From a bacterium (GTDB lineage: Bacteria; Hinthialibacterota; Hinthialibacteria; Hinthialibacterales; Hinthialibacteraceae), in assembly GCA_963662285.2 (NCBI GenBank), contig CAXXMV010000002.1, positions 864,001 through 928,000 of the forward strand: DNA of 64,000 nt. The letters run 5' to 3'. Every line of letters begins with the position of its first letter. The first letter of the stretch is position 1. The notes under the pieces are model-generated. The model was not told the origin of the DNA, ran no database searches, and was given only the letters and a program-made list of their open reading frames with translations. Shown here one piece after another: positions 5,184-55,206 of the stretch. The translations under genes and the position numbers were made by a program.

Positions 5184-5208
5184 CCTCACCCTATCCCTCT
5201 CCCGGCGG
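5184..5208 (+). repeat. Left half of a CCCTCACCC-CCCTCTCCC hairpin repeat (IS481 target)
   Basis: CCTCACCCTATCCCTCTCCCGGCGG directly abuts the IS481 end; same repeat family at 23433 and 55147. Confidence 0.75.
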
Positions 5209-5261
5209 TGTAAAGGCCTGGGACATGGGTAACAGGTGTTCGGGGACATAGGTAACACATT
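5209..5261 (+). mobile_element. Solitary left end (IRL) of the IS481-family element
   Basis: TGTAAAGGCCTGGGACATGGGTAACAGGTGTTCGGGGACATAGGTAACACATT is identical to the reverse complement of the element end at 55146; no transposase or right end follows. Confidence 0.9.
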
Positions 5262-5291
5262 GGTTGCATTGTATTGAAGGGTGGTTAGGTA

Positions 5292-5510
5292 TCAGTTTTT
5301 TTTTACTGCTTTGACTCCCTTATGGCTTAAACCCACTCCACTGAATACGCACCCGAACCATTGTAGGCTTTCAATCAACTTCGGCGTCCAATCCGGCGCG
5401 TCGCCCGCCATCCAGATGTCTGACATTTTTTGAAGAATCATTGCAGCCAGAAAAAGCCCGGCGCCTATAGTGGTTTTCTTTTCATTGATTAGTGACCAGA
5501 ACCATTTCAT
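5292..5510 (-). CDS. Small two-helix membrane protein, phage-holin-like architecture
   Basis: 72 aa from MKWFWSL with AAGGAG RBS; two hydrophobic segments and a basic C-terminus (HKGVKAVKKN). Confidence 0.55.
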   Translation of the reverse strand: MKWFWSLINEKKTTIGAGLFLAAMILQKMSDIWMAGDAPDWTPKLIESLQWFGCVFSGVGLSHKGVKAVKKN

Positions 5511-5634
5511 TGGTTTGCTCCTTATTTTTTGTTTTTTTATATCAATAAATTGACATAGCATAGCTGAGACAAAATTGTTTTGTCCAAAAAATGACCGTTA
5601 TTTCTATGGCGATCTTATGTGATAGAACTGTCAG

Positions 5635-5991
5635 TTATCCTTTTTTCATAAGCAACCCGCTTTGCAAATCCTGGGGGCGTATAGGATTTTCGTAATCTTT
5701 GCCTGATTTCTTGGGCGGCGTAAAAGACAAGACTGGTTCAGAAGCGATTTTTGCTTCGACTTGCTGCTTGATGTTTTCAACTTTGCTCAGGATTTTGTCT
5801 TTGGGCTGGCTGATGCTCTTGATAAACCACATCCTCGTTTTTACGCAAGAACAAAAAAAGTTGAACAATGACATCATTCGATTATCATTGATATGAAATC
5901 TTTTCTTGATAGCATCAGCCATTTTTTCGATGCAGTAATCCATTGTTTCGATAATTTTTTGATCCAATTGGTTTGACATTTCAACGTTCAT
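5635..5991 (-). CDS. Hypothetical protein
   Basis: 118-aa ORF with a strong AGGAGG RBS; no recognisable motif. Confidence 0.55.
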   Translation of the reverse strand: MNVEMSNQLDQKIIETMDYCIEKMADAIKKRFHINDNRMMSLFNFFCSCVKTRMWFIKSISQPKDKILSKVENIKQQVEAKIASEPVLSFTPPKKSGKDYENPIRPQDLQSGLLMKKG

Positions 5992-6017
5992 AATTTTCCT
6001 CCTAGGGAATGTTTAGA

Positions 6018-6140
6018 TGATGAGTCGGCAAAAAGTGGAAGAAAGACGAAACTCACGTTACATCTTGTATATAAGTCTCATGAATATCCACTTAGTATTG
6101 TGGTCATAAAAACAGTTTTTGACTTTTTACCGTTTCGTCA
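6018..6140. mobile_element. 123-bp MITE, copy 2
   Basis: Same element as 4206-4328, flanked by its own TAGA direct repeat (6014-6017 / 6141-6144). Confidence 0.85.
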
Positions 6141-6343
6141 TAGATACGCATTATGGCAAGAACCATGCCAACAATTGAACGTTTGTTTAGTTTTTGGGAT
6201 TTATTTGTCTGAATCTGGATGGGCAGGATTGAAGGATGATCTGGATTTTGTTTTATTAGGTAGTTGCGTGTTTTGGGAATATTGGATAATCAAAACGTAT
6301 CATTACATTGAGCAGGGATAAGAGATTACCTCTATTCTTGAAT

Positions 6344-7360
6344 TTAATATTCTTCACGTTCGACGCGGGCGGCTAGTTCTTTGAAGTGGAATAGTTTTTG
6401 GTATTCGATCAGAGTTGATAGTGCTCTATGTTCGGTGGGGATGCCCGCCTCTTCAATGGCTGCGGTAGGATTCAAGCCTCCGGCCACGATGATTCCCGTG
6501 CGGCCTTCTTCGACCGGGAATTCCAGCAGCGACTGATTGGGTTTTCCCAGAAGCAGTATGCCTCCCAACCCTATCTGATCTAATTTGTCGCGGATGACTT
6601 TTACTTCATTAATGGCGGAAGAAGGAATCTCCCGGAAGCTGGCGCCGATGCGGCCATGTCCGGATCGAGCGACTTCACGAGCGCTGGTGAGTTTGCCTTT
6701 GATAAAAATTTCCAGAGGATCAAGGGATGTTCCATTGTAATATATAACATCGGTGAAGCGTACCGGATTACCTTTATCCATCTCTAATACGCCGCCGAAG
6801 AGGGAGACCGTTGGAATGCGTGCGCTGAGCAGAATTCCATTGAGGGTGACGCTGCATACTGTACCTATGCCTACTTTTCCGGGCGGGATTATTAATTCAC
6901 CCAGGGTTTCTCCTTCATGAGTTAAATAGGTCAGGCGTCCCATACCTACATTGGCTTCAAACACCGGGATCATGTGCCGCACCGCAGCGGGTAAATTGAC
7001 CCGGTCAATTACTGATATATTCATGACGATTAATCCCGAACCGGTATTAGGATCAAAAGTGACCTGATAAGACAGATCATCAACTTTGGCGGCCATGAAG
7101 CCAATGCGGAAGTTGACGTTGGCGTCATGGATTTCGCTGATGCCCTGGCTGGTGATTTCCCGCCCCCCGCTGCGTCCGCGTTTGGCATTTTTGACCAGGC
7201 CATCCCGTTCCATCTCTTCAAGGTAGAGACGGACGGTGCGGGGGCTTAAATCGAATCCAAAGGCCTGTAGTTCCATGGTGATGATAGAACTACCGACAGG
7301 ATGAGAGGAGTCGCGCAAAAACCGAAGAATGGCTACTTTTAATTTGGGATTAATTTCCAC
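6344..7360 (-). CDS. nrpR: NrpR-family nitrogen regulator (winged HTH plus NRD/DUF128 domains)
   Basis: wHTH (PVGSSII...RTVRLYLEEMERDGLV...GREITSQG), TVCSVTLNGILL, GTSLDPLEIF, GGLNP motifs; start GTG at 7360 inferred. Confidence 0.85.
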   Translation of the reverse strand: MEINPKLKVAILRFLRDSSHPVGSSIITMELQAFGFDLSPRTVRLYLEEMERDGLVKNAKRGRSGGREITSQGISEIHDANVNFRIGFMAAKVDDLSYQVTFDPNTGSGLIVMNISVIDRVNLPAAVRHMIPVFEANVGMGRLTYLTHEGETLGELIIPPGKVGIGTVCSVTLNGILLSARIPTVSLFGGVLEMDKGNPVRFTDVIYYNGTSLDPLEIFIKGKLTSAREVARSGHGRIGASFREIPSSAINEVKVIRDKLDQIGLGGILLLGKPNQSLLEFPVEEGRTGIIVAGGLNPTAAIEEAGIPTEHRALSTLIEYQKLFHFKELAARVEREEY

Positions 7361-7685
7361 TATTTTCAATCCAAGATTTATGATTATTTGGTTAATATAC
7401 CATAAAAACAAAAAAGAACATATTGATAATTGGCATTTATTCTATTTTTAATAATAAATAATAAGGTTACATTTATTATACTTGATTGATATATTCTATT
7501 AAAGATGGAAGACTCAAAATTGAAAAACGATATCTAAATCATTTAAGATGCCGATAATAATTCAATAATTTATTAATGTTATCCGATTGAACCAATCCAG
7601 AGAAACGCATCTCCATAATACGCCTTATATATTAATAATTCAATTACTTATAAACATATCATAAATTATTCAACAGTAAAAAACC

Positions 7686-7717
7686 TTCAATATTTCAATA
7701 TTGATTGAAATATTGAA
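7686..7717. promoter_or_regulatory. Perfect 14-bp inverted repeat in the nrpR-gdhA divergent region
   Basis: TTCAATATTTCAAT-ATTG-ATTGAAATATTGAA. Confidence 0.45.
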
Positions 7718-7805
7718 GACAATATTAGAAAAATGAAATTTCTTCTGAAATATATTGACAAAACTTGACGCTCTTCTTGATTCCGATTTATTAATTCTGT
7801 ATTAT

Positions 7806-7825
7806 TATGGAATTGCAATGCCATA
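7806..7825. promoter_or_regulatory. Candidate NrpR operator upstream of gdhA
   Basis: Near-palindrome TATGGAATTGCAATGCCATA containing GGAA-N6-TGCC (archaeal NrpR operator is GGAA-N6-TTCC), downstream of TTGACA/TTGACG boxes. Confidence 0.55.
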
Positions 7826-7994
7826 TTAATTTATTTTGTATTCTGTAAATTGGTAACATGAAGCCAAATAGGCAGTTCGTTATGATTTAACCTTCTGGAA
7901 AGTCAAATTCTGAAGGCGGTTCAAATACTTGTTTGATGGATTGCATAATCAACTGGCATAGAAAAAAATATTTATAAAGGAGAATGGTAATATC

Positions 7995-9335
7995 ATGTCA
8001 TACACAAGCGATATATTCGAATTAGTTAAAAGGCGTAATCCGTCAGAGGTTGAATTTCACCAGGCAGTCAAAGAAGTTCTCGATTCACTGGAACCGGTTA
8101 TGGAGCGCCATCCGATTTATCAGAAATCGAGAATTCTTGAGCGCATCACTGAACCAGAGCGCGTCCTTATGTTCCGCGTTCCATGGTTCGACGATAACAA
8201 TGTTCCGCAAGTAAACCGGGGCTTCCGCATCGAATTCAGCAGCGCTATCGGCCCTTACAAGGGTGGACTGCGCTTTCATCCTTCGGTAAATCTGGGCATT
8301 CTAAAATTCCTGGCTTTTGAGCAGGTCTTCAAGAATTCATTAACAACTCTTCCCATCGGCGGCGGCAAGGGTGGGTCCGATTTCGATCCTAAAGGCAAAT
8401 CGGATGAAGAGATCATGCGTTTTTGCCAATCCTTCATGACCGAATTATGTAAACACATTGGCCACAATACAGATGTTCCTGCGGGCGACATCGGGGTTGG
8501 CGGTCGTGAAATCGGTTTTCTGTTCGGCCAATACAAACGCATCCGTAATGAGTTCGTCGGCGTACTAACCGGAAAAGGACTAGACTGGGGCGGCTCGCTT
8601 ATTCGTCCTGAAGCGACTGGTTATGGAGCGGTTTATTTCGCTCAAAATATGCTAAGCGGCCGTAATGGTGATATGTCAGGTAAAGTTTGTACTGTTTCAG
8701 GTTCTGGTAATGTTGCTCAATATACCGTTGAAAAAATCAATGATTTAGGCGGCAAATGCGTTTCACTGTCTGATTCAAACGGCACTATTTATGATCCTGA
8801 CGGCATTACGCCTGAAAAACTCGCTTTCGTAATGGAATTGAAAAACGTCAAGCGCGGCCGTATCAGTGAATACGCCAAGAAATTCTCCGGCGTTGAATTC
8901 AAAGAAGGCGTGCGTCCCTGGGATATCAAGTGCGACTGCGCTTTCCCATCCGCCACCCAGAACGAAGTTTCAACCAGTGATGCAGAAACATTGGTTAAAA
9001 ACGGCTGCATCCTCGTATCAGAGGGCGCCAACATGCCGACCGAACCAGGCGGCGTGGACGTATTTCTGAAGAATAAAATTCTTTACGGCCCGGGCAAAGC
9101 AGCCAACGCCGGTGGAGTTGCCGTTTCAGGTCTGGAAATGGCTCAGAACTCACAGCATATCTCCTGGACGCGTGACCAGGTGGATAATCATTTAAAAGAC
9201 ATCATGCAAGCTATCTACACGACCTCATCCGAACATGCCCAAGAATACGGCGATCCAGAAAACTTTGTTATAGGCGCCAACATAGCAGGATTCTTGAAAG
9301 TAGCAAACGCAATGATCGATCAGGGTCTTGTATAG
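7995..9335 (+). CDS. gdhA: NADP-specific glutamate dehydrogenase
   Basis: GPYKGGLRFHPSVN, GGGKGGSDFDPKG, DVPAGDIGVG, RPEATGYG, GSGNVA motifs; AAGGAG RBS. Confidence 0.97.
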   Translation: MSYTSDIFELVKRRNPSEVEFHQAVKEVLDSLEPVMERHPIYQKSRILERITEPERVLMFRVPWFDDNNVPQVNRGFRIEFSSAIGPYKGGLRFHPSVNLGILKFLAFEQVFKNSLTTLPIGGGKGGSDFDPKGKSDEEIMRFCQSFMTELCKHIGHNTDVPAGDIGVGGREIGFLFGQYKRIRNEFVGVLTGKGLDWGGSLIRPEATGYGAVYFAQNMLSGRNGDMSGKVCTVSGSGNVAQYTVEKINDLGGKCVSLSDSNGTIYDPDGITPEKLAFVMELKNVKRGRISEYAKKFSGVEFKEGVRPWDIKCDCAFPSATQNEVSTSDAETLVKNGCILVSEGANMPTEPGGVDVFLKNKILYGPGKAANAGGVAVSGLEMAQNSQHISWTRDQVDNHLKDIMQAIYTTSSEHAQEYGDPENFVIGANIAGFLKVANAMIDQGLV

Positions 9336-9395
9336 ATTTCTAAAAACTTGTCAAAATTTCTCTGATTGAATAAAACTATTTATTCTTTTGAAACA

Positions 9396-9427
9396 GGGGC
9401 GGCGCTGAACCGCCCCTTCTTCTTTTT
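9396..9427 (+). terminator. Intrinsic terminator after gdhA
   Basis: GGGGCGG-CGCTGAA-CCGCCCC followed by a T-rich tract. Confidence 0.75.
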
Positions 9428-9514
9428 AAACCAGGAGTGATGCGACTTGCCTAAGAGCCGTGTTTTATGTTATCTTTGTTTTGACGAAGAGGCTCTATTT
9501 ATTAGGGTGGCTTT

Positions 9515-9547
9515 GGTGGGCTACGCTTCGCTTTTAGCCCACCCTAC
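9515..9547 (-). repeat. GTAG-type REP (GTAGGGTGGGC variant)
   Basis: GGTGGGCTA...TAGCCCACCCTAC hairpin with terminal CTAC. Confidence 0.65.
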
Positions 9548-9776
9548 TGGCCTTAGAACCATGCAAGCCCTGGGTCAGAACATGGCCTGGCTGCTGAAGA
9601 AGATAAACGCTTAGAATAATTCCAATATAAAACACCGGGCCGCTCAGCAAGAAGATTGCCGGGCGGCCCGATATTGTTTTATCAGAGTGATCTTTTTGCT
9701 AAGGAATCTGTGGTCCAAATTCATATAGATCGTAATTCGAAAACAGCCCTTATTTGGACTGCTCTAAAGAAATGTC

Positions 9777-11048
9777 CTATGGGCTTGAGTTGGCATAAAC
9801 TGGTAAAAAGATATCGCCACGACTTTCAATACCGTTAGAAGGATTATAGACAATATTGGCATAGTCGTTTCGTCTATCAGGACCGATACTGTAATATAAT
9901 TTTTGGGCTTGAGAATAGAGAAATGATTTTGAATTATCTTCAAACGGATCAATCGGTTCTGTTTTGATATACTTGGATATGGCATCTTCCATACTTCGAT
10001 TCTGGCCGTTATCGTTAAGTTGAACTAACCGTTTTGCTAAACGCAATCGGGATAGACGGGTGAGGGCTATCGCTTCATCTTCTTTTACTTTCGAGGATTC
10101 GAAATTAGGAACGCCAACTTTGTAAACTATAGCGTCGATTTGCTTTCCCACGCCCAGTAGGCGTCCAATACCTAAGTAACTTTCCCATTCTGAATCCAAT
10201 TCATATTTATATAAATAATCAGTCCAAAGACGAAAATAATAGCGTTTTGATCTTCTTTGTTGCAGATTTTTGTTCTCAGGCAGTTCTTTTATTATAGCGA
10301 TAACGTCTTGCCAAAACGGATCGGTTATAGAATCAAGCAGAATTTTGGATTCCAACTGGTTCATTTTCAACAAACAGTTTTGTAAAGCAGGCGTTTCCAT
10401 GCATTGGTCTGCCAAATAAGCCATGGTTTTCGCCGCTTTGACTTGTATACCGCTAGCAATCAAATGGGCGCTTAATATCATGTAAAGTGGTCTTTGGGTT
10501 AGGCGAAAAGCGGCAAGATTGGCATTGAACGCTTTTATCCACTGTAGGTCATGGGCTTCAGCCCATGCCGATAGGCACAGAAGGTCTCCACACATATATA
10601 GATGATAGAAATTCACATTTTTTGCACTGCCTTTTGAGGCTTCGACCATAGCAGGGAAAACACTGTCCGATTCTTCTGTAAGGGTTTTCAATTCGTTCAA
10701 CCATGGGCGGATCCGCTGTATTTCCGCCTTCACTCGCATCCAATCAGTAGCAGTAAAGGATTTCCCCTCGATTAATTGATTAAATAGCTGGGGATCCACT
10801 GTTTTAACAGAATAGGTTTGATAATTAGCAACATTTTTTTGAGATTGCTCTTTCATGATGGATGGGATTGAAGTGGTTTGAAAATATACAGAAGGCAGAT
10901 TGATAGGTTCATTCAATATGTTTTGAATTTTTTTGTACTGGTCAGCAGGAATGAAATTTTTAACAACATAGTTTACTTTATAGTGAATACCTAATAGTGG
11001 TACAATAAAGAGAATAATGAATAGAAAAAGCGCAATTTTCCATTTCAT
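9777..11048 (-). CDS. Membrane-anchored helical protein with a C-terminal pilin/GspG-like head
   Basis: N-terminal TM segment; C-terminal GVPNF...PIDPF...YSIGPD...YNPSNGIESRGDIF matches the prepilin motifs at 62018 and 62801. Confidence 0.7.
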   Translation of the reverse strand: MKWKIALFLFIILFIVPLLGIHYKVNYVVKNFIPADQYKKIQNILNEPINLPSVYFQTTSIPSIMKEQSQKNVANYQTYSVKTVDPQLFNQLIEGKSFTATDWMRVKAEIQRIRPWLNELKTLTEESDSVFPAMVEASKGSAKNVNFYHLYMCGDLLCLSAWAEAHDLQWIKAFNANLAAFRLTQRPLYMILSAHLIASGIQVKAAKTMAYLADQCMETPALQNCLLKMNQLESKILLDSITDPFWQDVIAIIKELPENKNLQQRRSKRYYFRLWTDYLYKYELDSEWESYLGIGRLLGVGKQIDAIVYKVGVPNFESSKVKEDEAIALTRLSRLRLAKRLVQLNDNGQNRSMEDAISKYIKTEPIDPFEDNSKSFLYSQAQKLYYSIGPDRRNDYANIVYNPSNGIESRGDIFLPVYANSSP

Positions 11049-11222
11049 CGGTTCTTCTCCTATGGATGTTGAAGGTTTTTTTTAATTATTGATACTCTAA
11101 AACTTATGTCAATAGGTTTTTTTGAGATCGTTGTTTAGGATTAAACTTTGTATATATGTTGTTGATAAAGGCTTGAAATTATGGTATGAACATAGCAAAA
11201 CGAATTTGAATGGCTTACGTAA

Positions 11223-13823
11223 ATGAAAAATATTCTTGTTTGCGTTTTTTTTGTCATGTTTTGCAGCAGTTTTCCTTGGGAATCTGTTGCGGATGAGTAT
11301 GCCGCAAAATTTGGCCTTTTTGATGCTACAGCAGACTGGGGTCTACCGCTATTTCCTCCACAACAAGGCATATATAAAGTTCCTGGAAAAGTCTCAGTTT
11401 CACATTTAAGAGATGGATTCATTTACGATATTTTTGGTAATGGAGATGATATTGGAAATATATCTGATGAAGGATTCTTTGTATATGGGGATCGTGCAGG
11501 ATCATGGAAATTATCTGCCAAAGTGCATTGGATTGAAGGAGGTGGTCCTCAAGGCCGGAGCCTGGGAAAAGTCGGCCTGCAAATACGGGAAAGAGGCCCC
11601 GATCCAGGTTCAAAATTCTATTTCTTTGCTTTGAAATCGGGTTGGGGGAAATATATTGGGATGGAATCGTCGATAATATTCCGATTGGATGATAATACCA
11701 TTGCAGAATCAACGCAAAATATTAAAGATTTGCATGGGGAAGATCTTCATGATCCCGGGTCAGGGATTTTCTTCAAGGTGACAAGGATAGCTCCACTCAA
11801 TTTGATCCGAGCAGAATGTTCGTATGATGGCATAACATGGCGCATGGTACATGAATGCTATTTCCTTATGCATGAAACAGTCGCTTACGGGATTGCAATC
11901 ACTAACCGGGCAGATAGTGAGGAATTGGGGCATGCTCGTATTTCAAACCTAAATCTCGAACCAGTTGAACTATCGGCTTATCGAATCCTTTCCCAAGAAC
12001 GATATCTACCTGGAGAACAAGTTAAGGTAATTCTAGAATTTTTAAATCCCTATGTAAAAACAAAAACCATTCAACTTGTTGAAATGCTTCCTCGCAATTG
12101 GCGAGCAACTAATATCTCGTACAGCAATGAGGATTACATCCAGGTAGGATTGAATTCAACTCCTATCAATGAATCTGAAAAACAGCGCATTTACCGGACT
12201 TTACATCTCAAACCGGGCTTGTCTTACATGACATATCTGGCAAATGCGATGGAATCTAATATCCAAGAAGCTGTTTTTTCCGGTCGGATCAATGAGGCAA
12301 AAACCGAAGGAAAATCAAAATTAGTATTAAGCCCTTTCTCGTTTTCAGAAAACCGGAGGCGTACATTTTTGCAGACACTGTATACAGCCATTCCGATGGT
12401 TATGGCAGTGGTGCACTTTATCCTTTTCCTTTTTTATCCTCGAATGAAAGAGAACCTGCATTTCGCAATATTTTCTTGCGGAGTAGCGTTATTTGGATTC
12501 ACCTTATTTCAATGGGAATTATTGGCTACCCGCTTTTTCTTTTTAAGGTATCTCTCGCAATTCCTTCTGGCAGTGCTGACATTGCGTTTTTTTTATAGTT
12601 TATCATACGATAAAATTCCGTTACGATTTTGGTATATCATCTCATTACCGTTACTCGTTGTCTGGATATCTATTTGGTTACCGCTTTACCCACTCGATAT
12701 GATGGTTTTTAACATTTATATATTATATGTATTTGTTGAAATTATCCGCATTCTGATTCACCCCATTCGGTTAGCTGAAAAAGAAGGGATTTGGATTCCT
12801 GCTTTGGGAGCATTGATCTTTTGTTTGATTCTTGTTTACACAGCATTTGCGCAGATAATGGGATGGCCTGACTATTACGAACATGGCCCGTGGCCTTTAC
12901 TGCTGATTTTTTTATTCATGTCTGTTTATTTGGCTTATCAGTTTGCCAAAACCAATAAAGACCTTGCTATCCTGAATCTTGAATTAGAGATGAGAATTGA
13001 GGAGCGCACAGTTCAACTGAAAGAAGCGCAAAATCAAATAATTCTATCAGAAAAAATGGCGTCTCTCGGTCAACTGGTTGCAGGAGTCGCTCATGAGATC
13101 AACAATCCTATCAACTTTATTCGATCAAACCTACAACCTTTGAAAGAGTATTTATCGGGTTATAAAAAAGCATTCGATGCCATGAAGCAAATGAAAGAGC
13201 GTTTTCCACATGACATCAAATCGGCCTTTGAGGAAATTGCCGAAAATGAAGATTTAGATTTCGCCTGTGAAGATAGTGATAAACTGATTCAATCCTTTGA
13301 AGATGGTTCTAATCGAATTGCCCAGATAGTTGCCGGCCTTCGACAGTATTCCCGCGTCGATGAGGAATACTATTCCCCATACGATCTCCGCGAGGCCATC
13401 GATTCGACTCTGGATCTTCTTTTTAATAGATACAAAGATAAGATCAGAATTCAAAAAAACTATGACGATATTCCACAAGTCAACTGTTCACCAGGAAAAA
13501 TCAATCAAGCCTTCATGAATTTACTTTCGAACGCGATTGAGGCGATTGAAGGAGAAGGTAATATTTGGATTCATACTACTAGGCAAGACGAAAACGTTTT
13601 AGTGAAAATCCGTGATGATGGAAAAGGAATTGCTAAAGAGATTCAGTCAAAGATATTTGATCCATTTTTTACGACTAAGCCTGTCGGGGAAGGAACCGGT
13701 TTAGGTTTATCAATTACATATAGCATAATCGAACAGCATGGGGGGACAATTATCATTGAAAGTGAAGTGGGGAAAGGAACAACTTTCACTGTGATATTGC
13801 CTATCAAAAAAGATATTGAATAA
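11223..13823 (+). CDS. Sensor histidine kinase: extracellular beta-rich domain, 7TM (DISM-like) region, HisKA, HATPase
   Basis: Signal peptide; about 7 TM segments; EKMASLGQLVAGVAHEINNP H-box; NLLSNAIEA, DDGKG, FDPFFTTKPVGEGTGLGL boxes. Confidence 0.92.
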   Translation: MKNILVCVFFVMFCSSFPWESVADEYAAKFGLFDATADWGLPLFPPQQGIYKVPGKVSVSHLRDGFIYDIFGNGDDIGNISDEGFFVYGDRAGSWKLSAKVHWIEGGGPQGRSLGKVGLQIRERGPDPGSKFYFFALKSGWGKYIGMESSIIFRLDDNTIAESTQNIKDLHGEDLHDPGSGIFFKVTRIAPLNLIRAECSYDGITWRMVHECYFLMHETVAYGIAITNRADSEELGHARISNLNLEPVELSAYRILSQERYLPGEQVKVILEFLNPYVKTKTIQLVEMLPRNWRATNISYSNEDYIQVGLNSTPINESEKQRIYRTLHLKPGLSYMTYLANAMESNIQEAVFSGRINEAKTEGKSKLVLSPFSFSENRRRTFLQTLYTAIPMVMAVVHFILFLFYPRMKENLHFAIFSCGVALFGFTLFQWELLATRFFFLRYLSQFLLAVLTLRFFYSLSYDKIPLRFWYIISLPLLVVWISIWLPLYPLDMMVFNIYILYVFVEIIRILIHPIRLAEKEGIWIPALGALIFCLILVYTAFAQIMGWPDYYEHGPWPLLLIFLFMSVYLAYQFAKTNKDLAILNLELEMRIEERTVQLKEAQNQIILSEKMASLGQLVAGVAHEINNPINFIRSNLQPLKEYLSGYKKAFDAMKQMKERFPHDIKSAFEEIAENEDLDFACEDSDKLIQSFEDGSNRIAQIVAGLRQYSRVDEEYYSPYDLREAIDSTLDLLFNRYKDKIRIQKNYDDIPQVNCSPGKINQAFMNLLSNAIEAIEGEGNIWIHTTRQDENVLVKIRDDGKGIAKEIQSKIFDPFFTTKPVGEGTGLGLSITYSIIEQHGGTIIIESEVGKGTTFTVILPIKKDIE

Positions 13824-14125
13824 GCCCTTTCTATGCGGTATTGCCTGCATATTCTCAATGAGCGAACATGCCAGTTCGATTCATCTCGATAATAATGCGC
13901 CAATAACTAGCGTTCAATTGTACGATGTAGTAATTTTAGAGACTCTGAAAAAACGCTTCTTTAAAAAATCTTATAATTCAAATGTTCCTGATTCTCATCT
14001 TTAATGGAATCAAGTAAATAATGCGGTAGGTCTCAGCCTGCAAAATCTTTGCATTGATCCTCTGGACATGTTCTACGATTGAAAATCATTGATCCGATAT
14101 TTTTTATAAATCTCAAAAAAAACTC

Positions 14126-14169
14126 TTGACAAACAAAAGTTGATGATTTAATGTTGGTGAATTAACGTT
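14126..14169 (+). promoter_or_regulatory. Promoter and tandem candidate operator of the BlaI-like gene
   Basis: TTGACA at 14126 followed by GTTGATGATTTAAT / GTTGGTGAATTAAC tandem 14-mers overlapping the -10 region. Confidence 0.5.
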
Positions 14170-14189
14170 AAGAAATGCGAGGTTAAATT

Positions 14190-14779: not shown

Positions 14780-14879
14780 TCAGACCTCCTGAGCTCACCC
14801 GTGGTTTGCGGTTCTCGCGGGATTTTGTTAGGATACTGGAGGGAAGGCCAATCCTGCAGAGTATGAGGGAGTTAAAAAA

Positions 14880-23392: not shown

Positions 23393-23513
23393 CGGGCGCC
23401 AACAATGTCATTAACTTTGGTTATTGGAATGTCCCCCTCACCTTTATCCTCTCCCAGAGGGAGAGAGGATAACACGGTTAACTTAATGACATTGCCACGA
23501 GAGGCGCCCCTAC
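23393..23513 (-). repeat. GTAG-type REP interrupted by a MITE
   Basis: CGGGCGCCAA [MITE] CCACGAGAGGCGCCCCTAC. Confidence 0.75.
23403..23494. mobile_element. 92-bp MITE with IS4-like TIRs carrying a CCCTCTCCC hairpin
   Basis: CAATGTCATTAACTT ... AACTTAATGACATTG; internal CCCCTCACCTTTATCCTCTCCCAGAGGGAGAGAGG. Confidence 0.75.
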
Positions 23514-30910: not shown

Positions 30911-31137
30911 GTTTTAAGTATCCCCCAATTTTATTCATCGCAACGTCTTTCCCCCTCACCAATTTCGGGTAACAAAGTCCCCTCTACCCTTGGGTGAAGA
31001 TGTAATAATAACACGGATATGAACGTTATAATACAAAACATCCTAATCATATTAGACTTATAACGCTTGACCGTGTTACACTCATCCATAGCTATTCATG
31101 CTGGATCCGGTACTTATATAAAAGGGGGAGTATTCGA

Positions 31138-45174: not shown

Positions 45175-45224
45175 ACTATGTTATCTTTCAACATCGCCGA
45201 ACATACTGATTCAACGCAAGTTTA

Positions 45225-46091: not shown

Positions 46092-46148
46092 TCTTAATAC
46101 TCCAATTCAATAAATTATTAATTGAATGTTTGGTTATTCTTTCGCCCC

Positions 46149-47225: not shown

Positions 47226-47691
47226 CTTTAATCCATATCTGTACGGTTCCTGCTTTTACATCATTTAATTCATATACACTCTATTCTGTTCATCACGAAA
47301 ATCATAGTCATATTCTAAATTATTGATCTATTAAATGGAAATGATTTCTTGTTAAAAATTCCATGATATTTACGTTTAAGCGCTTCATATATAGTCCGTG
47401 AGGATTTATCGCTGATTTTTTTTGATAGTGACCAGCAACAAATTCAGGGAATTTCCGAAACACATTTTCACGATTAATATTGCATATTTTTTATTGAATA
47501 TATCATCTCTAATTTAAAATTATTATTGCTTGACAAATTAATTCTTCGATAAACCATTGCCATACATCTTCAAAATCGATAAAAACGATGTATAAATATT
47601 CTTGATGCGCCCATACCATTAAGGGTTTTATGGGCAATCTATAATCTAGATTCAAAATACTATACTAAAACGGCTAGGCAGGAAAAGAACT

Positions 47692-50415
47692 ATGGTTAAA
47701 CAGAATGTGTATTTCTTTGGCAACGGCAAAGCAGATGGCGCTGCAGCAATGAAGAATTTGCTCGGCGGCAAGGGCGCGAACTTGGCGGAAATGTCAAAAC
47801 TCAAAGTACCCGTCCCCGCTGGTTTCACGATCACTACGGAAATGTGCACTGAGTACAACAAAAATAAGGGTAAATACTCACCGGCTTTCAAAAAAGAAGT
47901 TGCAGCTAATCTTGCCAAAGTCGAAAAAGTTATGGGCAAGAAATTTGGCGATTCCAAGAATCCTCTTCTTCTTTCAGTTCGTTCCGGTGCGCGTAGCTCC
48001 ATGCCCGGTATGATGGAAACCATCCTGAATGTTGGCTTGAATGAAACCACTATCGAAGCAATCACCAAAAAAACCGGCAATCCTCGTTTCGTATGGGATT
48101 CTTATCGTCGTCTGATTCAGATGTACGCCGATGTCGTTATGGAAAAAGCCGCAGGCTTCGAACCAGAAGATGGCATGGGAATCCGGCCTCAGTTGGATGA
48201 GGAACTGGAAAAAATGAAAGAATCCCGCGGTATTAAGCAGGATTGCGATCTGACTGCTGAAGATCTTCAGGAATTAGTGAAAATCTATAAAGCGAAAATC
48301 ATAAAAGTCCTTAAAACACCCTTCCCGGATGATCCCGAACAGCAGTTGTGGGGTTCCATCAACGCAGTTTTCCAGTCCTGGAACGGAAAACGCGCTATAT
48401 CCTACCGACAGATCGAAGGCATCCCTGAAGAATGGGGCACAGCGGTTAACGTTCAATCAATGGTATTCGGCAATATGAGCAATGACTCAGCTACCGGCGT
48501 TGCTTTTACCCGTAACCCGGCCACTGGTGAAGACTGGTTCTACGGCGAATGGTTGGCCAATGCCCAGGGCGAAGATGTTGTCGCCGGTCTACGTACTCCC
48601 AACCCGATAAACAAAAAAGGCAAAACCGAACAGAGTAGACACCTTAAATCCCTTGATGAAATAATGCCTAAACTTTACAAAGAGCTTGATGGCATTCAGC
48701 AAAAACTGGAAAAGCACTACAAAGACATGCTCGACATCGAGTTTACCATTGAAGAAGGCAAACTATGGATGTTGCAATGCCGCGTTGGTAAACGTAATGG
48801 TCCAGCCGCTGTTCGCATGGCAGTTGAAATGCACAAATCAAAGATGATCAACGCCAAAACTGCTGTTCTTCGCGTGACGCCTTCTCAGTTGGACGAGCTG
48901 CTTCACCCCATCGTCGATCCATCTATAGAAAAGACTACCGCCGTCTTCGCTAAAGGTTTGCCAGCCGGTCCTGGCGGCGCCTGCGGCCAGATCGTCTTTT
49001 CGGCTGATGCTGCTGTTGAATGGGAGAAAAAAGGTAAAACGGTTGTCCTGGTTCGCACCGAAACCAATCCGGAAGATGTTTCAGGCATGCGTGCTGCTAT
49101 TGCTATTCTTACCGCCCGCGGTGGTATGACAAGCCACGCTGCTCTGGTCGCCCGTGGATGGGGCAAATGCTGCATCGTTGGCGCTGGCGCACTGGACATC
49201 AATTACAAAACCAAGACCATTACTGCTGGTGATGTTACATTGAAAGAAGGCGATTTCATTACTCTTAACGGATCAAAAGGTTATGTCTATAACGGTCAAC
49301 TGCCTTTGATCGATTCAGGAAAGAGCAATAAATACTTTGAAGCCTTCATGAAGATTTGTGATTCAATCCGTAAACTCAAAGTTAGAACAAATGCTGAAAC
49401 TCCTGAAGATGCTAAAATCGCTATACAGTATGGCGCTGAAGGCATCGGCCTATTCCGCACCGAACATATGTTCTATGGCGAAGGCTCCGAACAACCGCTT
49501 TCAAAATTGCGCAAAATGATCATGTCCAAGGATGTTACTGAGCGCAAGAAAGCTTTGAAGGAACTCTATCCTTTCCTTAAGAAAGATATCAAAGCAACTC
49601 TTTCCACTATGAACGGAATGCCTGTTACTTTCCGTCTGCTCGATCCTCCTCTGCATGAATTTGTTCCACAGGAAAAAGCAGAAATTGCGAAACTTTGCAA
49701 AGAGTTGGGCATTACTACGGCGGAATTTCAGAAACGCTCAGATATTCTTCATGAACTCAACCCCATGATGGGACATCGCGGCGTTCGTCTTGCCATCACT
49801 TATCCGGAAGTTGCTGAAATGCAGATTCGCGCGATTCTTGAATCATCCGCCGAATTGATTAAAGCCAAAAAGAAACCTCTGCCAGAAATCATGATTCCGG
49901 TTGTTTGCGGAGTAGGCGAATTAGTAGAAATGAAAGCGCTCTGCGAGAGCGTCTATAAAGATGTTCTGGAAAAATCCAAACTGAAAAAGATTCCTTACAT
50001 GTTTGGAACCATGATCGAGATTCCCCGCGCTTGCCTGGTCGCTGATAAGATCGCTGAAGTTGCTGAGTTCTTCTCCTTCGGAACCAACGACCTTACTCAG
50101 ATGGGCTTTGGATTCAGCCGCGACGATATCGGCGGTTTCCTGACCGATTATATCGAACAAGGCATCCTGCCTGACGATCCTTTCCAGACGATTGATCAGG
50201 AAGGCATCGGCGAACTTATCGAAGTTGCTGTTGAGCGTGGCCGCAAGGGACGCAAAGGCATCAAACTGGGCATCTGCGGCGAACATGGCGGCGAGCCGGC
50301 TTCGGTTGAATTCTGCCACCGCACTGGCCTGGAATACGTATCCTGCTCACCTTACCGAGTACCCATCGCCCGTCACTCCGCTGCTTGCGCCGTGGCCCGC
50401 GAAACAAAGAAATAA
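47692..50415 (+). CDS. ppdK: Pyruvate, phosphate dikinase
   Basis: LGGKGANLAEM, SVRSGA, GGMTSHAA phospho-His motif, SFGTNDLTQ, GICGEHGG. Confidence 0.97.
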   Translation: MVKQNVYFFGNGKADGAAAMKNLLGGKGANLAEMSKLKVPVPAGFTITTEMCTEYNKNKGKYSPAFKKEVAANLAKVEKVMGKKFGDSKNPLLLSVRSGARSSMPGMMETILNVGLNETTIEAITKKTGNPRFVWDSYRRLIQMYADVVMEKAAGFEPEDGMGIRPQLDEELEKMKESRGIKQDCDLTAEDLQELVKIYKAKIIKVLKTPFPDDPEQQLWGSINAVFQSWNGKRAISYRQIEGIPEEWGTAVNVQSMVFGNMSNDSATGVAFTRNPATGEDWFYGEWLANAQGEDVVAGLRTPNPINKKGKTEQSRHLKSLDEIMPKLYKELDGIQQKLEKHYKDMLDIEFTIEEGKLWMLQCRVGKRNGPAAVRMAVEMHKSKMINAKTAVLRVTPSQLDELLHPIVDPSIEKTTAVFAKGLPAGPGGACGQIVFSADAAVEWEKKGKTVVLVRTETNPEDVSGMRAAIAILTARGGMTSHAALVARGWGKCCIVGAGALDINYKTKTITAGDVTLKEGDFITLNGSKGYVYNGQLPLIDSGKSNKYFEAFMKICDSIRKLKVRTNAETPEDAKIAIQYGAEGIGLFRTEHMFYGEGSEQPLSKLRKMIMSKDVTERKKALKELYPFLKKDIKATLSTMNGMPVTFRLLDPPLHEFVPQEKAEIAKLCKELGITTAEFQKRSDILHELNPMMGHRGVRLAITYPEVAEMQIRAILESSAELIKAKKKPLPEIMIPVVCGVGELVEMKALCESVYKDVLEKSKLKKIPYMFGTMIEIPRACLVADKIAEVAEFFSFGTNDLTQMGFGFSRDDIGGFLTDYIEQGILPDDPFQTIDQEGIGELIEVAVERGRKGRKGIKLGICGEHGGEPASVEFCHRTGLEYVSCSPYRVPIARHSAACAVARETKK

Positions 50416-50455
50416 ACAATAATCGGAAGAATCCGGTTATGATATGAAAAGTTAA

Positions 50456-50491
50456 CGGGGAAAATCCTGCAAGGATTTTCCCCGGTTTTTT
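50456..50491 (+). terminator. Intrinsic terminator after ppdK
   Basis: CGGGGAAAATCCT-GCA-AGGATTTTCCCCG followed by a T tract. Confidence 0.8.
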
Positions 50492-50525
50492 GTTAATAGA
50501 AATTATCTTTATTATTCAAAGCACA

Positions 50526-50609
50526 GTAGGGGCGCACCATCGTGGTCGCCCGATTATTAATATGCCTATGATTGCATAATCCGGGCGCCCCACAAGAGGC
50601 GCACCCTAC
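50526..50609. repeat. GTAG-type REP doublet
   Basis: GTAGGGGCGCACCATCGTGGTCGCCCG ... CGGGCGCCCCACAAGAGGCGCACCCTAC. Confidence 0.85.
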
Positions 50610-50631
50610 GCAAATCACATGATCATCTGGA

Positions 50632-52053
50632 TCACATCTTCTTCCAGCGCAACAGGCGAACGCCCGCTTTGGCCTTGCGGTAGAATTCTTCAAAACTTCC
50701 CACGGCCAGCATACGCTTGATCAAGTATCCCGGACGCATATAAAACCGCTTGTAACCCGAGCGCATGATCTCTATCAATTCCTCGCGTGAGAGTATTTGA
50801 TCCCAAACCCGTGGGGCGAATCCCGGTTGGGGATCACGGGCGAATTTCTGCCAGAAATCGTGATCGTAAAATCCATTCTGCAAACCCCAGCGGTACAGTT
50901 CCGTACTTGGGAAAGGCGTGGTGATGGCGATATGCACGAAATCAGCGGCTATTGAACAGGCGAATTTGAGCGTATCTTCGATCTGCTCCGGCGTCTCATC
51001 GGGGAAACCAATCATGAAATAGCCCAGGGTTGATATGCCGTGGTCACGCGTCATCTGGAAAACTTCTTTGGTGCGATCCAGTTTAATGCCTTTTTTTATC
51101 AGTTTCAGTATATCCTGGTTGCCCGATTCAACGCCATAATGAATCCGGCTGCAACCCGCTCCGGCAAGAGCTTCCAGCACCTCTTCGTCAATGGTGTTGA
51201 TATGCGCCCGGATATCCCAACTGATGTTGATCTTGTTCTCAATTATGGCCCGGCAAATATCCAGCACCCGGTCTTTGCGTATCGAGAAAGTATCGTCATA
51301 TACAAAAATCTCACCGATGCCCATATCGCTGCATAACTGCATCTCCTTAATCACGCTCTCCGCGCTGCGATAGCGGAACTTTTTACCCAAATGAGGCCGG
51401 TCGCAATAAATGCATTTCATCGGGCATCCCCGGCTGGTCATCATTGTGGTGATGGGATTTCTTTTGGCCAGTACCGAATAATAACGATCCTGGGGTACAA
51501 GATGACGAGCGGGCATAGGCAATCTGTCTAAATCTTCAATCAACGGCGGACAATCGTTCAAATGTACTATGCCATTTTTTTTGTAACCCAATCCATTTAT
51601 GTTGTTTAGGTCGCCGTTGCCGCCTATTGCTTCGATCAGGCCGCTGAAACTCTCTTCCGCCTCTCCACGAATTATGAAATCCACTTCAGGAATTTGCAGC
51701 GTCTCTTCAGGATAAATGAAGACATGGGGGCCGCCAATTACCACTTGGATGGCAGTATCAATACGCTTGACGGTTTTCGCCGTGATTATAGTATCTATCA
51801 GAGTGAACGTCGTAGCCTGGATGCCGACCAGATCAGGTTTTCTTTTTCGTATCTCATCTTCCAGTTGTTCATAACTGAATCGCTCTGCGGGACAGTCCAG
51901 CACCTCAATTTGGCTGGAGGTTCCCTGTTCAGCGAAACTGGCGACATAAAGCAGACCGAGGGGTGGATAAATGCCACTCTCTTCATCTACTACTGACGGA
52001 ACGTTAGTAGTAATCATATTGTGTTCTGGAGGCTGTATAAGTAATACTCGCAT
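50632..52053 (-). CDS. B12-binding domain radical SAM protein
   Basis: Start MRVLLIQPP; PPLGLLY, GGPH, TSRGCPMKCIYC, YGVESG. Confidence 0.92.
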   Translation of the reverse strand: MRVLLIQPPEHNMITTNVPSVVDEESGIYPPLGLLYVASFAEQGTSSQIEVLDCPAERFSYEQLEDEIRKRKPDLVGIQATTFTLIDTIITAKTVKRIDTAIQVVIGGPHVFIYPEETLQIPEVDFIIRGEAEESFSGLIEAIGGNGDLNNINGLGYKKNGIVHLNDCPPLIEDLDRLPMPARHLVPQDRYYSVLAKRNPITTMMTSRGCPMKCIYCDRPHLGKKFRYRSAESVIKEMQLCSDMGIGEIFVYDDTFSIRKDRVLDICRAIIENKINISWDIRAHINTIDEEVLEALAGAGCSRIHYGVESGNQDILKLIKKGIKLDRTKEVFQMTRDHGISTLGYFMIGFPDETPEQIEDTLKFACSIAADFVHIAITTPFPSTELYRWGLQNGFYDHDFWQKFARDPQPGFAPRVWDQILSREELIEIMRSGYKRFYMRPGYLIKRMLAVGSFEEFYRKAKAGVRLLRWKKM

Positions 52054-52223
52054 AAAAAAATACCTGATTTTATTTGTGAAAAAATTAAGTTCAGTATGAT
52101 TATAGATGGATTTTGTTTTGTTGATACTGGCTGATTTGTTCTCATTTAAGCGCTTGACGCTTCGCCAGACCAATAAGTTGAGGTAAACTTCTCTTTTATT
52201 ATTTCGTTGGAGGCTATAAAAAA

Positions 52224-53522
52224 ATGATCGAACGGTATACGCGGGAAGCAATGGGAAATATCTGGAGCGATCAGTTTCGTTTTGAAACATGGCTCAAGGT
52301 CGAAATCGCGGCTTGCATCGCTCATAATCGTTTAGGAGTCGTGCCTGACGATGCTTTGGAAGAAATTAAGACCAAGGCCAAATTCGAGATCGAACGCATT
52401 CACGAAATCGAAAAGACCGTTGATCATGAAACCATCGCATTTCTGACAAATGTCGCCGAACATGTCGGTCCCGCCTCCCGCTATATCCATTATGGCATGA
52501 CCTCATCGGATAAATTGGATACTGCTACCGCCCTGCAACTGGTAGCGGCCGCCGATCTGCTGCTTGATGGGCTAAAACAACTACATCAGAGCGTCGGCGT
52601 CGTTGCTAAAAAACACAAAAACTCCGTCATGGTAGGGCGTACGCATGGCGTCCATGCTGAGCCAATAACCTTCGGTTTGAAAATGGCTATTTTCTATGAA
52701 GAACTGGGGCGCCAGTTAGTCCGCATGGCGAGCGCTAAAGAGACCATCCGCGTCGGGAAAATGTCCGGCGCTGTGGGAACTTTCTTCCATATCGATACCC
52801 GCGTCGAAGAGATTGTCTGTGAAGAATTAGGCCTCAAGCCGGCGCCGGTCAGCAATCAGATCATTCAACGCGACCGCCATGCTGAATTTTTAGCGGCTAT
52901 AGCAAATGTTGGAGCAACTTTAGAAAAAATGGCGCTGGAAATCCGCGGATTGCAAAAAACTGAAATACGCGAAGTCCAGGAACCTTTTCCTCCAGGGCAA
53001 AAAGGCTCGTCCTGCATGCCGCATAAAAAGAATCCCAACCTATGTGAACGCATCACCGGATTGGCCCGCCTGCTGCGCAGTTACGCCATGACTGGTTTTG
53101 AAAATGTGGCTCTGTGGCACGAACGCGACATCTCCCACTCATCAGTCGAGCGCGTCTCTTTGACTGACGCCTGCGTCCTGCTCGATTATATGATGGCCAA
53201 AATGAATTGGATCATCGAAAACCTGGTTGTCGATACAGAGCGCATGAAAAAGAATATTGAATCTTCCAATGGCGTGGTCTTCTCACAAAAAGTCCTTCTG
53301 CTTCTGGCTATGAAGGGCATGTCGCGTGAAGATGCATATAAAATAGTCCAGGATTGCGCCATGAAAGTATGGGATACCGACATACAACTAGTAGATTCTC
53401 TCAAAGAAAACCAGGAACTGAAATCACTTGTTACCAATCAGGAGATTGAAGAATGCTTCAGTCTGGATGGTCTATTAAAGAATGTAGATTTCGTCTTCGA
53501 CCGCATCGGGCTTAATTCATAA
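52224..53522 (+). CDS. purB: Adenylosuccinate lyase
   Basis: MIERY, HYGMTSSD, GRTHGVHAEP, GSSCMPHKKNP, LWHERDISHSSVER. Confidence 0.97.
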   Translation: MIERYTREAMGNIWSDQFRFETWLKVEIAACIAHNRLGVVPDDALEEIKTKAKFEIERIHEIEKTVDHETIAFLTNVAEHVGPASRYIHYGMTSSDKLDTATALQLVAAADLLLDGLKQLHQSVGVVAKKHKNSVMVGRTHGVHAEPITFGLKMAIFYEELGRQLVRMASAKETIRVGKMSGAVGTFFHIDTRVEEIVCEELGLKPAPVSNQIIQRDRHAEFLAAIANVGATLEKMALEIRGLQKTEIREVQEPFPPGQKGSSCMPHKKNPNLCERITGLARLLRSYAMTGFENVALWHERDISHSSVERVSLTDACVLLDYMMAKMNWIIENLVVDTERMKKNIESSNGVVFSQKVLLLLAMKGMSREDAYKIVQDCAMKVWDTDIQLVDSLKENQELKSLVTNQEIEECFSLDGLLKNVDFVFDRIGLNS

Positions 53523-53553
53523 ACCTCGATGCAATTAACTCACTAATGAAAAG

Positions 53554-53584
53554 AAGCCCCCGCTTAATAATAAGTGGGGGCTTT
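53554..53584 (+). terminator. Terminator hairpin after purB
   Basis: AAGCCCCCGCTTA-ATAA-TAAGTGGGGGCTT. Confidence 0.7.
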
Positions 53585-53639
53585 GATATATATTCTGATA
53601 CTTTCTATAACCCAAAACCTGTCCCCTCTCCCGCCGGGA

Positions 53640-55146
53640 TGTACAGACCGGGTAGATGGGTAACACATGTTCGGGGACATGGGTTACAGTTTTTTATCAA
53701 AACCGGGATTTATCCCAGGTTATTGTTTGAGTTTTTTTTTAGGCATCTAGAGATGCTCAGGATAATTGGTTGGCTTAGAGGGAGGAGGTGAATATTTCAC
53801 CTCCTGCATTATCCCTCGCACCTCGGATCGGCTATCCCTGGCGGGTTGCACTCCTGCAGCGCCCGCTTCCGTTTCGCCCAACCAATTTCTATTGTGACGC
53901 CTTTTTCTGGATTGCCAAGTTATCTTCTTTGATTTCATTCAAACGCAGATCGAGCGTCTTGATTTTTTGTCGGCAAAAATATACGTCCATCATCCCATCG
54001 GTCATAGCGGGTTTCAAGGCAACCGGGCATCCTACCAGGGCGCGGCTCACCCGGTAATCTTCACCACGGTACGCCACCCGACCTCCTTGTTGCACCTTCC
54101 TGATAATGCTGCCCGGCGCGTACTCGATATCCGGCAAACTTCCCGGATAAACAAAAGGACTGGACGTATAATGGTTAGCCGGGACATCCATATCCAGGGC
54201 TTCGTGAGGACGCTCAAAATTGTATTCATAACGCCACTCATCAAACCGCCTTTGGCAATATTCCAAATCCACAAACGATTCCCTTATCAGCAATTCTTGC
54301 TTAAAGGTCCGGTGAAATCGCTCGACCTTGCCTTGGGTTTGCGGATGGTAGGGGCGACCGTGATACACGCGAATACCCAATCGTATCAGCCATATTGTCA
54401 ATCTGGTGTATTCGCAGGTTTTGCATCCTCCCCACGGACTTCCGTTATCCATCAACATCGCCCGAGGCATACCATACATCCTGAACACGCTTTCCAGGGA
54501 GTCTTGCACGGTTTCCCTTTGCTGATTGGCGCACGAAAATAATCCGGGAACAAAGCGCGTGCAATCATCCAGAATGCTGAGCGGATAACAGCGTGCTTTG
54601 AGCGTGGGAAAATCTCCTTTGAAATCCATTTGCCACAATTCGTTGGGCGTATCTTTTTCAAAACGCTTATAGGCTTTGTGCTTGTGACTTTCCTTTTCAT
54701 CCAGCAATCCCAGTCGGCGTAACACGGCAGTAATAGTGCTGGCGCTAGGAACATTTTCGTATCCCAATTGAATCAGACGAGAGCGAATTTTGCGTCCTCC
54801 CCATCCTTTTTCGCGATTTTCTGTAATGGCTTGCTCGATAGACTTATCTGTTTGATGAGGGCAAGTATTGGGTTTTTTGGAACGGTCTTGGAGATTTTCG
54901 ACTCCTCCTTCTTTGTACCGTTTGATCCATTTGTAACCCGTCTTACGGCTGATATCAAACCGTTTACATAATTGGCTGATGTTGCTTTCTTCTTGCTGGC
55001 TCAACAATACGAATTCTTTTCTCAGAGACATAAGGTCCACCTCGTTCCAGGGCATATTCTTCGCCTCCTTTCAAGGCTAGAATACACTCAGAAAATGTGT
55101 TACCTATGTCCCCGAACACCTGTTACCCATGTCCCAGGCCTTTACA
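53640..55146 (-). mobile_element. Complete IS481-family insertion sequence (1507 bp) inserted in a CCCTCTCCC hairpin repeat
   Basis: TGT...ACA ends each with two GGGACATGGGTAACA-like repeats; 9-bp flanking repeat CCGCCGGGA / CCACCGGGA. Confidence 0.93.
53889..55055 (-). CDS. IS481-family DDE transposase
   Basis: MPW start, ISRKTGYKW HTH, WQMDFKG, MDNGSPW, PYHPQTQGKVERFHRT, YNFERPHEAL. Confidence 0.95.
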   Translation of the reverse strand: MPWNEVDLMSLRKEFVLLSQQEESNISQLCKRFDISRKTGYKWIKRYKEGGVENLQDRSKKPNTCPHQTDKSIEQAITENREKGWGGRKIRSRLIQLGYENVPSASTITAVLRRLGLLDEKESHKHKAYKRFEKDTPNELWQMDFKGDFPTLKARCYPLSILDDCTRFVPGLFSCANQQRETVQDSLESVFRMYGMPRAMLMDNGSPWGGCKTCEYTRLTIWLIRLGIRVYHGRPYHPQTQGKVERFHRTFKQELLIRESFVDLEYCQRRFDEWRYEYNFERPHEALDMDVPANHYTSSPFVYPGSLPDIEYAPGSIIRKVQQGGRVAYRGEDYRVSRALVGCPVALKPAMTDGMMDVYFCRQKIKTLDLRLNEIKEDNLAIQKKASQ

Positions 55147-55206
55147 CCACCGGGAGAGGGCAGGGTGAGGGCGAAATAGCGAATACTTAAGTTATCATTT
55201 AACCAC

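Follow-up and report, generated by a model that had tools for sequence, protein, structure and literature searches.

Insertion sequences (IS) that target repetitive extragenic palindromes (REPs) are listed in five families, IS3, IS110, IS4, IS256 and IS5, in the accessible text of the survey by Tobes and Pareja (2006; PMC1525189), where they are exemplified by ISPsy8 from IS3, ISPa11, ISPpu9, ISPpu10, ISRm19 and IS621 from IS110, ISRm22 from IS4, ISRm5 from IS256 and ISNm1106 from IS5. The IS481 family is absent from that list as far as the accessible text extends, and the available portion of Di Nocera et al. (2013; PMC3733652) makes no mention of it; likewise, no account of hairpin or REP targeting by an IS481-family element was found in the full-text literature, the coverage of which leaves most subscription journals outside, and papers in which IS481 and REPs both occur name them in unconnected passages. 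The present work concerns such an element, IS-A, a complete copy of which lies in a 64,000-nucleotide stretch of a bacterial genome of the Hinthialibacteraceae (assembly GCA_963662285.2, contig CAXXMV010000002.1, positions 864,001 to 928,000; the whole stretch is referred to below as the window). IS-A is a REP-like-targeting insertion sequence, ordinary in kind, new in family and of unusually broad phylogenetic reach, and it is probably an active element, its transposase steering integration towards short palindromes that are repeated between genes. The choice of target by DDE (Asp-Asp-Glu) transposases is only partly understood, and a clade that hits the centres of palindromes reliably, in hosts that differ widely, provides a tractable system in which to study how targets are read.

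The IS3-family element IS1397 inserts in the loop of its target with a duplication of 3-4 bp. Together with ISKpn1, it resembles IS-A in having a DDE (rve-type) transposase of a sister family and in inserting centrally into a repeated extragenic palindrome (the REP or bacterial interspersed mosaic element, BIME, of enterobacteria) with a short duplication and in both orientations, and the experiments cited for the pair in the accessible text of PMC1525189 place target specificity with the transposase. IS-A differs from both in its single open reading frame (ORF) without an OrfA/OrfB frameshift, in its 5-bp duplication, in its pyrimidine-arm/G-arm targets and in a register that is not unique, and its trait extends to relatives from many phyla, whose palindromes are unrelated. 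Elements of other families that target REPs are like IS-A in that their copies sit in repeats serving as gene-free landing pads (PMC1525189, accessible text), whereas the IS110 elements use a different enzyme with guide-RNA chemistry (PMC11208160, in the part available). With the type member of its own family, IS481 of Bordetella pertussis, IS-A shares the family transposase model, a single ORF and short terminal inverted repeats. IS481 of B. pertussis duplicates a 6-bp NCTAGN site and is not known to seek repeated hairpins.

Genomic copies of IS-A and the hairpins they occupy

The 7.29-Mb assembly (8 contigs, with the window at C2:864001-928000) holds 18 full copies of IS-A at 99.7-100% identity by BLAST. 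Seventeen are uninterrupted, and one match ends 12 bp short of the proximal end, the copy being whole but interrupted by a second element and having a 5-bp duplication in its flanks; the further matches are a 53-bp solo end in the window (5209-5261) and one unrelated match of 47 bp. The 388-aa ORF is intact in all 18 copies, with 0-2 amino-acid differences, and a perfect 5-bp target duplication lies directly against the tips of 17 of them, the copy in the window being the exception. These copies look like a recent burst, one that is probably ongoing. Full-length IS-A was found in none of 30 related genomes, which hold only short end-like matches and the ends of related elements at contig edges; in genomes of the window's order, such contig-edge ends also adjoin pyrimidine arms.

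By inspection, 15 of the 18 copies are located in or at the loop of a palindrome in which the left arm is pyrimidine-rich (mostly C) and the right arm is the matching G-rich sequence. Blind scoring of stems, with one mismatch allowed, the centre at most 6 nt from the insertion point and 20000 random genome positions for comparison, found a stem of at least 7 at 15/17 uninterrupted copies versus 1071/20000 random positions (5.4%; binomial P 1e-17), and a stem of at least 8 at 14/17 versus 394/20000 (binomial P 9e-22). At least four target sequence types are occupied, namely CCCTCTCCC arms joined by a 3-nt loop and bearing a GGGTGAGGG tail on one side, CCCTCTCCC-type arms with a 6-nt loop, the CCTCCCCC type, and two longer unique palindromes. 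The three atypical sites comprise one in which IS-A lies between a G-arm and its tail, where a further small insertion appears to have displaced the C-arm, a second in the arm of an AT-rich hairpin beside a run of ten G, and a third adjacent to six consecutive G and an unrelated hairpin. Under a strict usage of REP targeting every copy would lie in the repeat, and here 15 of 18 do while three are beside G-rich tracts only; under a broad usage, association far above chance with an abundant intergenic palindrome is what is seen. Active targeting by IS-A is beyond reasonable doubt, because selection alone cannot explain why, of 18 recent copies, 15 lie only a few bases from a loop. The first-pass annotation of this DNA had proposed a dispersed intergenic hairpin as the target after comparing two sites, and had named unrelated flanks at other copies as the observation that would overturn it; the flanks at 15 of the 18 copies turn out to be the same kind of hairpin.

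A census of perfect stems (pyrimidine arm 8 bp, loop 3-8 nt), counted as distinct loci, recovered 324 intact pyrimidine-arm/purine-arm hairpins genome-wide. Only 20 of these lie under an ORF of at least 120 aa while such ORFs cover 86% of the genome, leaving 94% of the hairpins outside long ORFs, a distribution that fits the earlier suggestion of a safe-harbour target. The CCTCTCCC...GGGAGAGG type makes up 184 of the hairpins, 79 having a 3-nt loop and 101 a 6-nt loop, and 61 of the 184 bear a one-sided tail (35 one way round and 26 the other). Roughly 10 IS-A insertions fall among the 79 hairpins with 3-nt loops and a single one among the 101 with 6-nt loops, and thus IS-A discriminates between hairpins with identical arms. 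The G-arm and tail of the preferred repeat (window 55152-55171) contain four G3 tracts with 3-nt spacers, a canonical G-quadruplex motif, and this repeat supplies 82 of the genome's 343 motifs of that kind; since the C-arm pairs with the first two G tracts, hairpin and quadruplex would compete. A possible link with REP-associated tyrosine transposases (RAYTs) was sought among the six Y1_Tnp genes of the genome, and hairpins flank none of them within 1.5 kb, for which reason the repeats are called REP-like and not REP elements proper.

Orientation, register and the G-rich arm

Since a perfect palindrome has an identical sequence on either strand, only the one-sided tail reveals the orientation of an insertion. 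The strict GGGTGAGG tail is found on the proximal side, next to the transposase-proximal terminal inverted repeat (IRL), at 5 full copies plus the solo end, and on the distal side at 4 copies, or 5 counting a variant tail; overall the ratio is about 5-8 versus 5. The fixed orientation proposed in the first-pass annotation does not survive these counts, and neither does its nucleotide-precise targeting, as the duplication may lie anywhere between the final 5 bases of the C-arm and a position 2 bases into the G-arm. With a proximal tail, exactly 5 bases separate the element from the G-arm at 4 of 5 informative ends, the duplication consisting of the last two C of the arm and the loop; with a distal tail, the duplicated sequence is the final 5 bases of the C-arm in 4 of 5 copies, and the remaining copy has a one-base shift. 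There is accordingly no single position common to every copy, but one register in four of five cases within each orientation, and the two sites from which precision had been argued fall, by coincidence, in the same one of these registers.

The invariant feature of IS-A sites is a G-rich arm at the transposase-proximal end. On the IRL side, the 12 nt past the duplication contain at least 6 G at 19/19 ends and at least 7 G at 17/19, the background P for the latter being 0.00985. At the three sites outside pyrimidine-arm hairpins, two of which lack a stem of at least 7 while one lies in the arm of an AT-rich stem, the IRL side has 7, 8 and 9 G, and the C-tract opposite is absent; the chance of a G-rich side at all three is about 1e-6.

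Two other accounts of target choice were rejected. Strand-specific capture at replication forks is not borne out, there being no bias relative to the sign of local GC skew, with which the orientation of IS-A agrees in 9 of 19 cases. A target that mimics the IS-A ends fared no better: 34 flanks aligned locally to both ends scored no better than shuffles, the lowest shuffle fraction being 0.03 and most exceeding 0.1.

The element and its transposase

IS-A is 1507 bp long with TGT...ACA termini, and the complete element that had been annotated in the window was recovered with the same boundaries from genomic BLAST (C2:917640-919146). Its imperfect inverted repeats of about 50 bp, IRL and the transposase-distal IRR, are identical at about 40 of 50 positions by hand count on the printed ends, and each of the two ends is composed of two sub-repeats. 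The transposase scores 268 bits against the NCBIfam IS481 equivalog model NF033577 (cut-off 224) and 117 bits against the IS3 family model, below its cut-off of 160, and Pfam detects rve, rve_3, helix-turn-helix (HTH) families HTH_32/28/29/23 and LZ_Tnp_IS481 (27.7 versus a cut-off of 22.2), in agreement with its original designation as a DDE element of the IS481 family. The triad D144, D203 and E245 is invariant in 24/24 aligned sequences (IS-A and 23 relatives), and a single transposase ORF is present with no programmed frameshift. IS-A belongs to the IS481 family by transposase model, by single ORF and DDE triad, and by TGT...ACA ends with a short duplication. Target duplications in the IS481 family span a published range of lengths.

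An AlphaFold2 (AF2) model of the transposase (mean pLDDT, the predicted local distance difference test, 84.4) displays helical N-terminal domains (HTH), an RNase-H-like core, an all-beta domain at residues 317-369 forming a beta-barrel, and a final helix. The last 98 aa match no Pfam family (best E-value 0.25). The best structural matches of the model are the IS21 transposase IstA (E 8.6e-18), TnsB of CRISPR-associated transposons, MuA and retroviral integrases, and the fold of the clade thus belongs to a structurally well-studied group.

Relatives in other hosts

The habit of targeting hairpins is inherited: in many phyla, relatives of IS-A occupy the centres of palindromes that belong to the host in question. 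A scan with one genome per species yielded 80 loci encoding transposases at 38-55% identity, from Bacteroidota, Ignavibacteriales, Chloroflexota, Acidobacteriota and Planctomycetota, from Alpha-, Beta- and Gammaproteobacteria, and from Zixiibacteriota, Binatia and others. Ends were called automatically, and 57 of the 80 loci had both ends and enough flank. A stem of at least 8 is present at 37/57 junctions versus 33/1114 control positions in the same loci, and a stem of at least 7 at 44/57 versus 80/1114. Fisher's P for the excess at junctions is 5e-36, the copies not being independent. By assembly, 26 of 41 have one or more sites with a stem of at least 8, after three loci whose ends were judged miscalled (L001, L028 and L070) had been dropped. 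In eight multi-copy assemblies, the shared region of the aligned copies extends into the palindromic flanks. Duplications among the relatives are mostly of 5 or 6 bp (16 and 10, respectively, of the 37 sites having one).

The targeted palindromes are unrelated from host to host; Burkholderiaceae, for example, have a CTTTCTTTGCGCGAG type, Planctomycetaceae a GGGCAAGCTG type and Chloroflexia CCCTCCCC/GGGGAGGG types. Where several transposases of a genome are identical, the palindromes they use share their arms but have free loops, and transposases that are 80-90% alike target similar palindromes. It was also observed that essentially one composite repeat (CCCTCTCCC arm, loop, GGGAGAGGG arm and GGGTGAGGG tail) flanks related elements in distant phyla, the loci concerned (L008, L045 and L049) being from Hyphomicrobiales, Chloroflexota and Dehalococcoidia assemblies.

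Proposed mechanism and alternative explanations

The transposition complex of IS-A would dock on duplex DNA at the palindrome and read mainly the G-rich arm, which would end up beside IRL, and joins staggered by 5 bp in or just before the loop would yield a duplication that covers the end of the C-arm and/or the loop. As the arms are inverted copies of each other, docking could take place either way round, and the two docking directions would give both tail orientations, each with its own preferred register. Landing in gene-free hairpins would spare genes, which would account for IS-A having reached 18 intact copies in one genome without gene hits. Elements of the IS3 and IS481 families follow a copy-out-paste-in route, and IS-A would be expected to do likewise. 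Readout of arm sequence on duplex DNA by the transposase itself is favoured, since the G-rich flank is invariant, IS-A discriminates between loop sub-families and no replication-strand bias is seen.

Several points weigh against this reading. Registers differ by about 3 nt between the two orientations, which a purely symmetric readout of the arms would not predict, and two to three of the 18 IS-A copies are outside the family palindromes. The measure of G content was chosen after the data had been seen. The copy in the window has no 5-bp duplication, and 15 of 41 assemblies of relatives have no stem of at least 8 at the called site, although some of the end calls may err. Related transposases hit related palindromes in related hosts, such that readout of sequence and readout of shape are inseparable.

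The main rival is readout of shape, whereby any short perfect palindrome would be captured through a bendable centre or through cruciform or hairpin extrusion irrespective of arm sequence, each host offering its own abundant palindrome. This merits some credence though it is rather unlikely. The palindromes used across the clade are unrelated in sequence (pyrimidine arms, an A/T-rich-plus-GCGCGAG type, the GGGCAAGCTG type and others) and their loops vary freely, as shape readout would have it, and MuA, integrases and IstA, to which the computed fold is matched, act on strongly bent targets. Against it stand the preference of IS-A for 3-nt-loop hairpins (about 10/79) over those with 6-nt loops (1/101) and the retention of nothing but the G-rich flank at the three sites outside pyrimidine-arm hairpins; the 9/19 agreement with GC skew speaks against capture of a single-stranded hairpin on one replication strand, and a staggered 5-bp duplication spanning the loop would suit a duplex better than an extruded cruciform. 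A bolder and rather doubtful extension is that the IS481 clade with TGTAYAGACYGG-type ends recognises the geometry of palindromes and not their sequence, as a 'palindrome-centre integrase' distributed over at least 10 phyla, and that in the present genome a switch between hairpin and quadruplex could gate both the place and the time of landing.

Recruitment of the transposition complex by a host protein bound to the repeat, as discussed for REP-binding proteins, is unlikely. Such tethering would explain why distant relatives each use their own host's repeat, and why IS-A shares one repeat family with a second element of this genome, IS-B (described below); no candidate was found, however, the six Y1-transposase-like genes not being flanked by hairpins, and the transposases of IS1397 and ISKpn1 are reported to set specificity themselves (PMC1525189, accessible text).

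That IS-A inserts at random and only those copies in harmless repeats survive selection is very improbable: the hairpins are intergenic, and copies inside them are probably neutral, yet they occupy well under 1% of the ORF-free 14% of the genome and hold 15 of the 18 copies, with junctions within a few bases of the loop, and the many non-hairpin intergenic copies that this account needs are not there; the near-identity of the copies, moreover, marks them as recent and leaves little time for purging. The notion that the hairpin halves are part of the element, or made by it, can be dismissed, for although BLAST between copies of some relatives continues into the flanking arms, the 5-bp duplications adjoin the TGT/ACA termini with no gap and fall within the palindrome, arms and loops vary between copies while the left and right flanks of each copy match, 324 intact hairpins are devoid of element sequence, and the flanks have no significant similarity to the element ends.

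The window copy, the solo end and neighbouring repeats

The features of the window are collected in Table 1. The right junction of the window copy is typical, with a register as in the copy at C8:866604, whereas the left junction is not. A 9-bp duplication had been annotated here, but the 9-mers on the two sides agree at only 8 positions, the five bases that end the left flank differ from the five that open the right one, and all 17 other copies have an exact 5-bp duplication. The copy looks rearranged, and three origins fit: recombination or gene conversion with another copy, aided by homology of the arms; a 5-bp duplication (the last loop base and GGGA) together with four donor-flank bases at the proximal end; or a one-off 9-bp duplication followed by a point change.

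Table 1. Features of IS-A and its target repeats in the window (positions are those of the window; a dot denotes a feature without assigned strand)
Feature	Position	Strand	Basis or remark
IS-A, complete copy of IS481-family element, 1507 bp, TGT...ACA termini	53640..55146	-	Boundaries from BLAST alignment of 18 genomic copies; sequence read directly
IS-A transposase gene, 388 aa	53889..55055	-	ORF list; Pfam; NCBIfam NF033577
IRR, transposase-distal terminal inverted repeat, about 50 bp, two sub-repeats of about 25 bp	53640..53691	+	
IRL, transposase-proximal terminal inverted repeat	55095..55146	-	
Left half of occupied hairpin: C-arm (53624-53632), 3-nt loop, first 4 G-arm bases	53622..53639	.	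Atypical junction, no 5-bp duplication
Right half of occupied target: 5 bases, G-arm (55152-55160), GGGTGAGG tail (55163-55170)	55147..55171	.	
Solo IRL remnant, 53 bp, 100% identical to full copy	5209..5261	+	
Repeat half adjoining solo end: tail (5184-5191), C-arm (5195-5203), 5 bases	5184..5208	.	
Unoccupied imperfect hairpin repeat, 7-bp perfect stem, tail on left, 3-nt loop	23433..23470	.	Sequence read
Degenerate repeat relic: tail and mutated C-arm, no G-arm	30951..31000	.	Sequence read

The solo end is 48 kb from the window copy and inverted relative to it. Its register and orientation equal those of the proximal end of the full copy, as had been noticed at the outset, the order at both being element, 5 bases, G-arm and GGGTGAGG tail. 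For a model in which the segment between the two was inverted, purB provides one point of comparison, and neither the present nor the predicted neighbours of purB are found within 1.5 kb of it at any of 11 loci in relatives; GC skew over the 48-kb segment (+0.025 inside, -0.030 and +0.002 outside) has too much noise for a conclusion. The hairpin repeats are marked as hot spots of rearrangement, and split hairpin halves can be used to find the boundaries of elements and nested insertions.

The two repeats that had been reported between the solo end and the full copy are both present, with a reservation about the first, which was described as uninterrupted (23433-23469) and is in fact imperfect, extending one base further with a perfect stem of only 7 bp; the second is indeed degenerate. 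A conserved stretch, ACACGGTTAACTTAATGACATTG and its variants, follows many hairpins on the tail-free side (window 23470-23497 and several IS-A flanks), which would make the hairpin one component of a larger composite repeat. At 53546-53620, just after purB and upstream of the occupied repeat, there is a separate terminator-like hairpin with a T-rich stretch behind it, and the occupied repeat is therefore not the sole stem-loop between the convergent genes.

Other hairpin-associated elements

A second IS481-like element, IS-B (1818 bp, with a 357-aa transposase), is present in 5 copies, at C1:607699-609516 and four other places, and uses the same repeat family as IS-A at another position. Three of the five copies have a 4-bp duplication and share one register, directly preceding GGGGGTTG in the tail of the CCTCCCCC-type repeat; a further copy is nested in IS-A, 12 bp from the end of the copy that it interrupts, and one is without a duplication. 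A genome-wide screen for elements that split hairpins was noisy, and recovered the IS-A copies along with one further candidate. This is a non-coding element of 480 bp at C2:115727-116206, with CTACTCTCC...GGAGAGTAG ends, which lies in a hairpin loop with a 9-bp duplication and has 106 partial BLAST matches genome-wide but a single full-length copy at this stringency. An end similar to that of the 480-bp element is also seen beside the IS-A copy at C8:567710, and the element may be a third that seeks hairpins.

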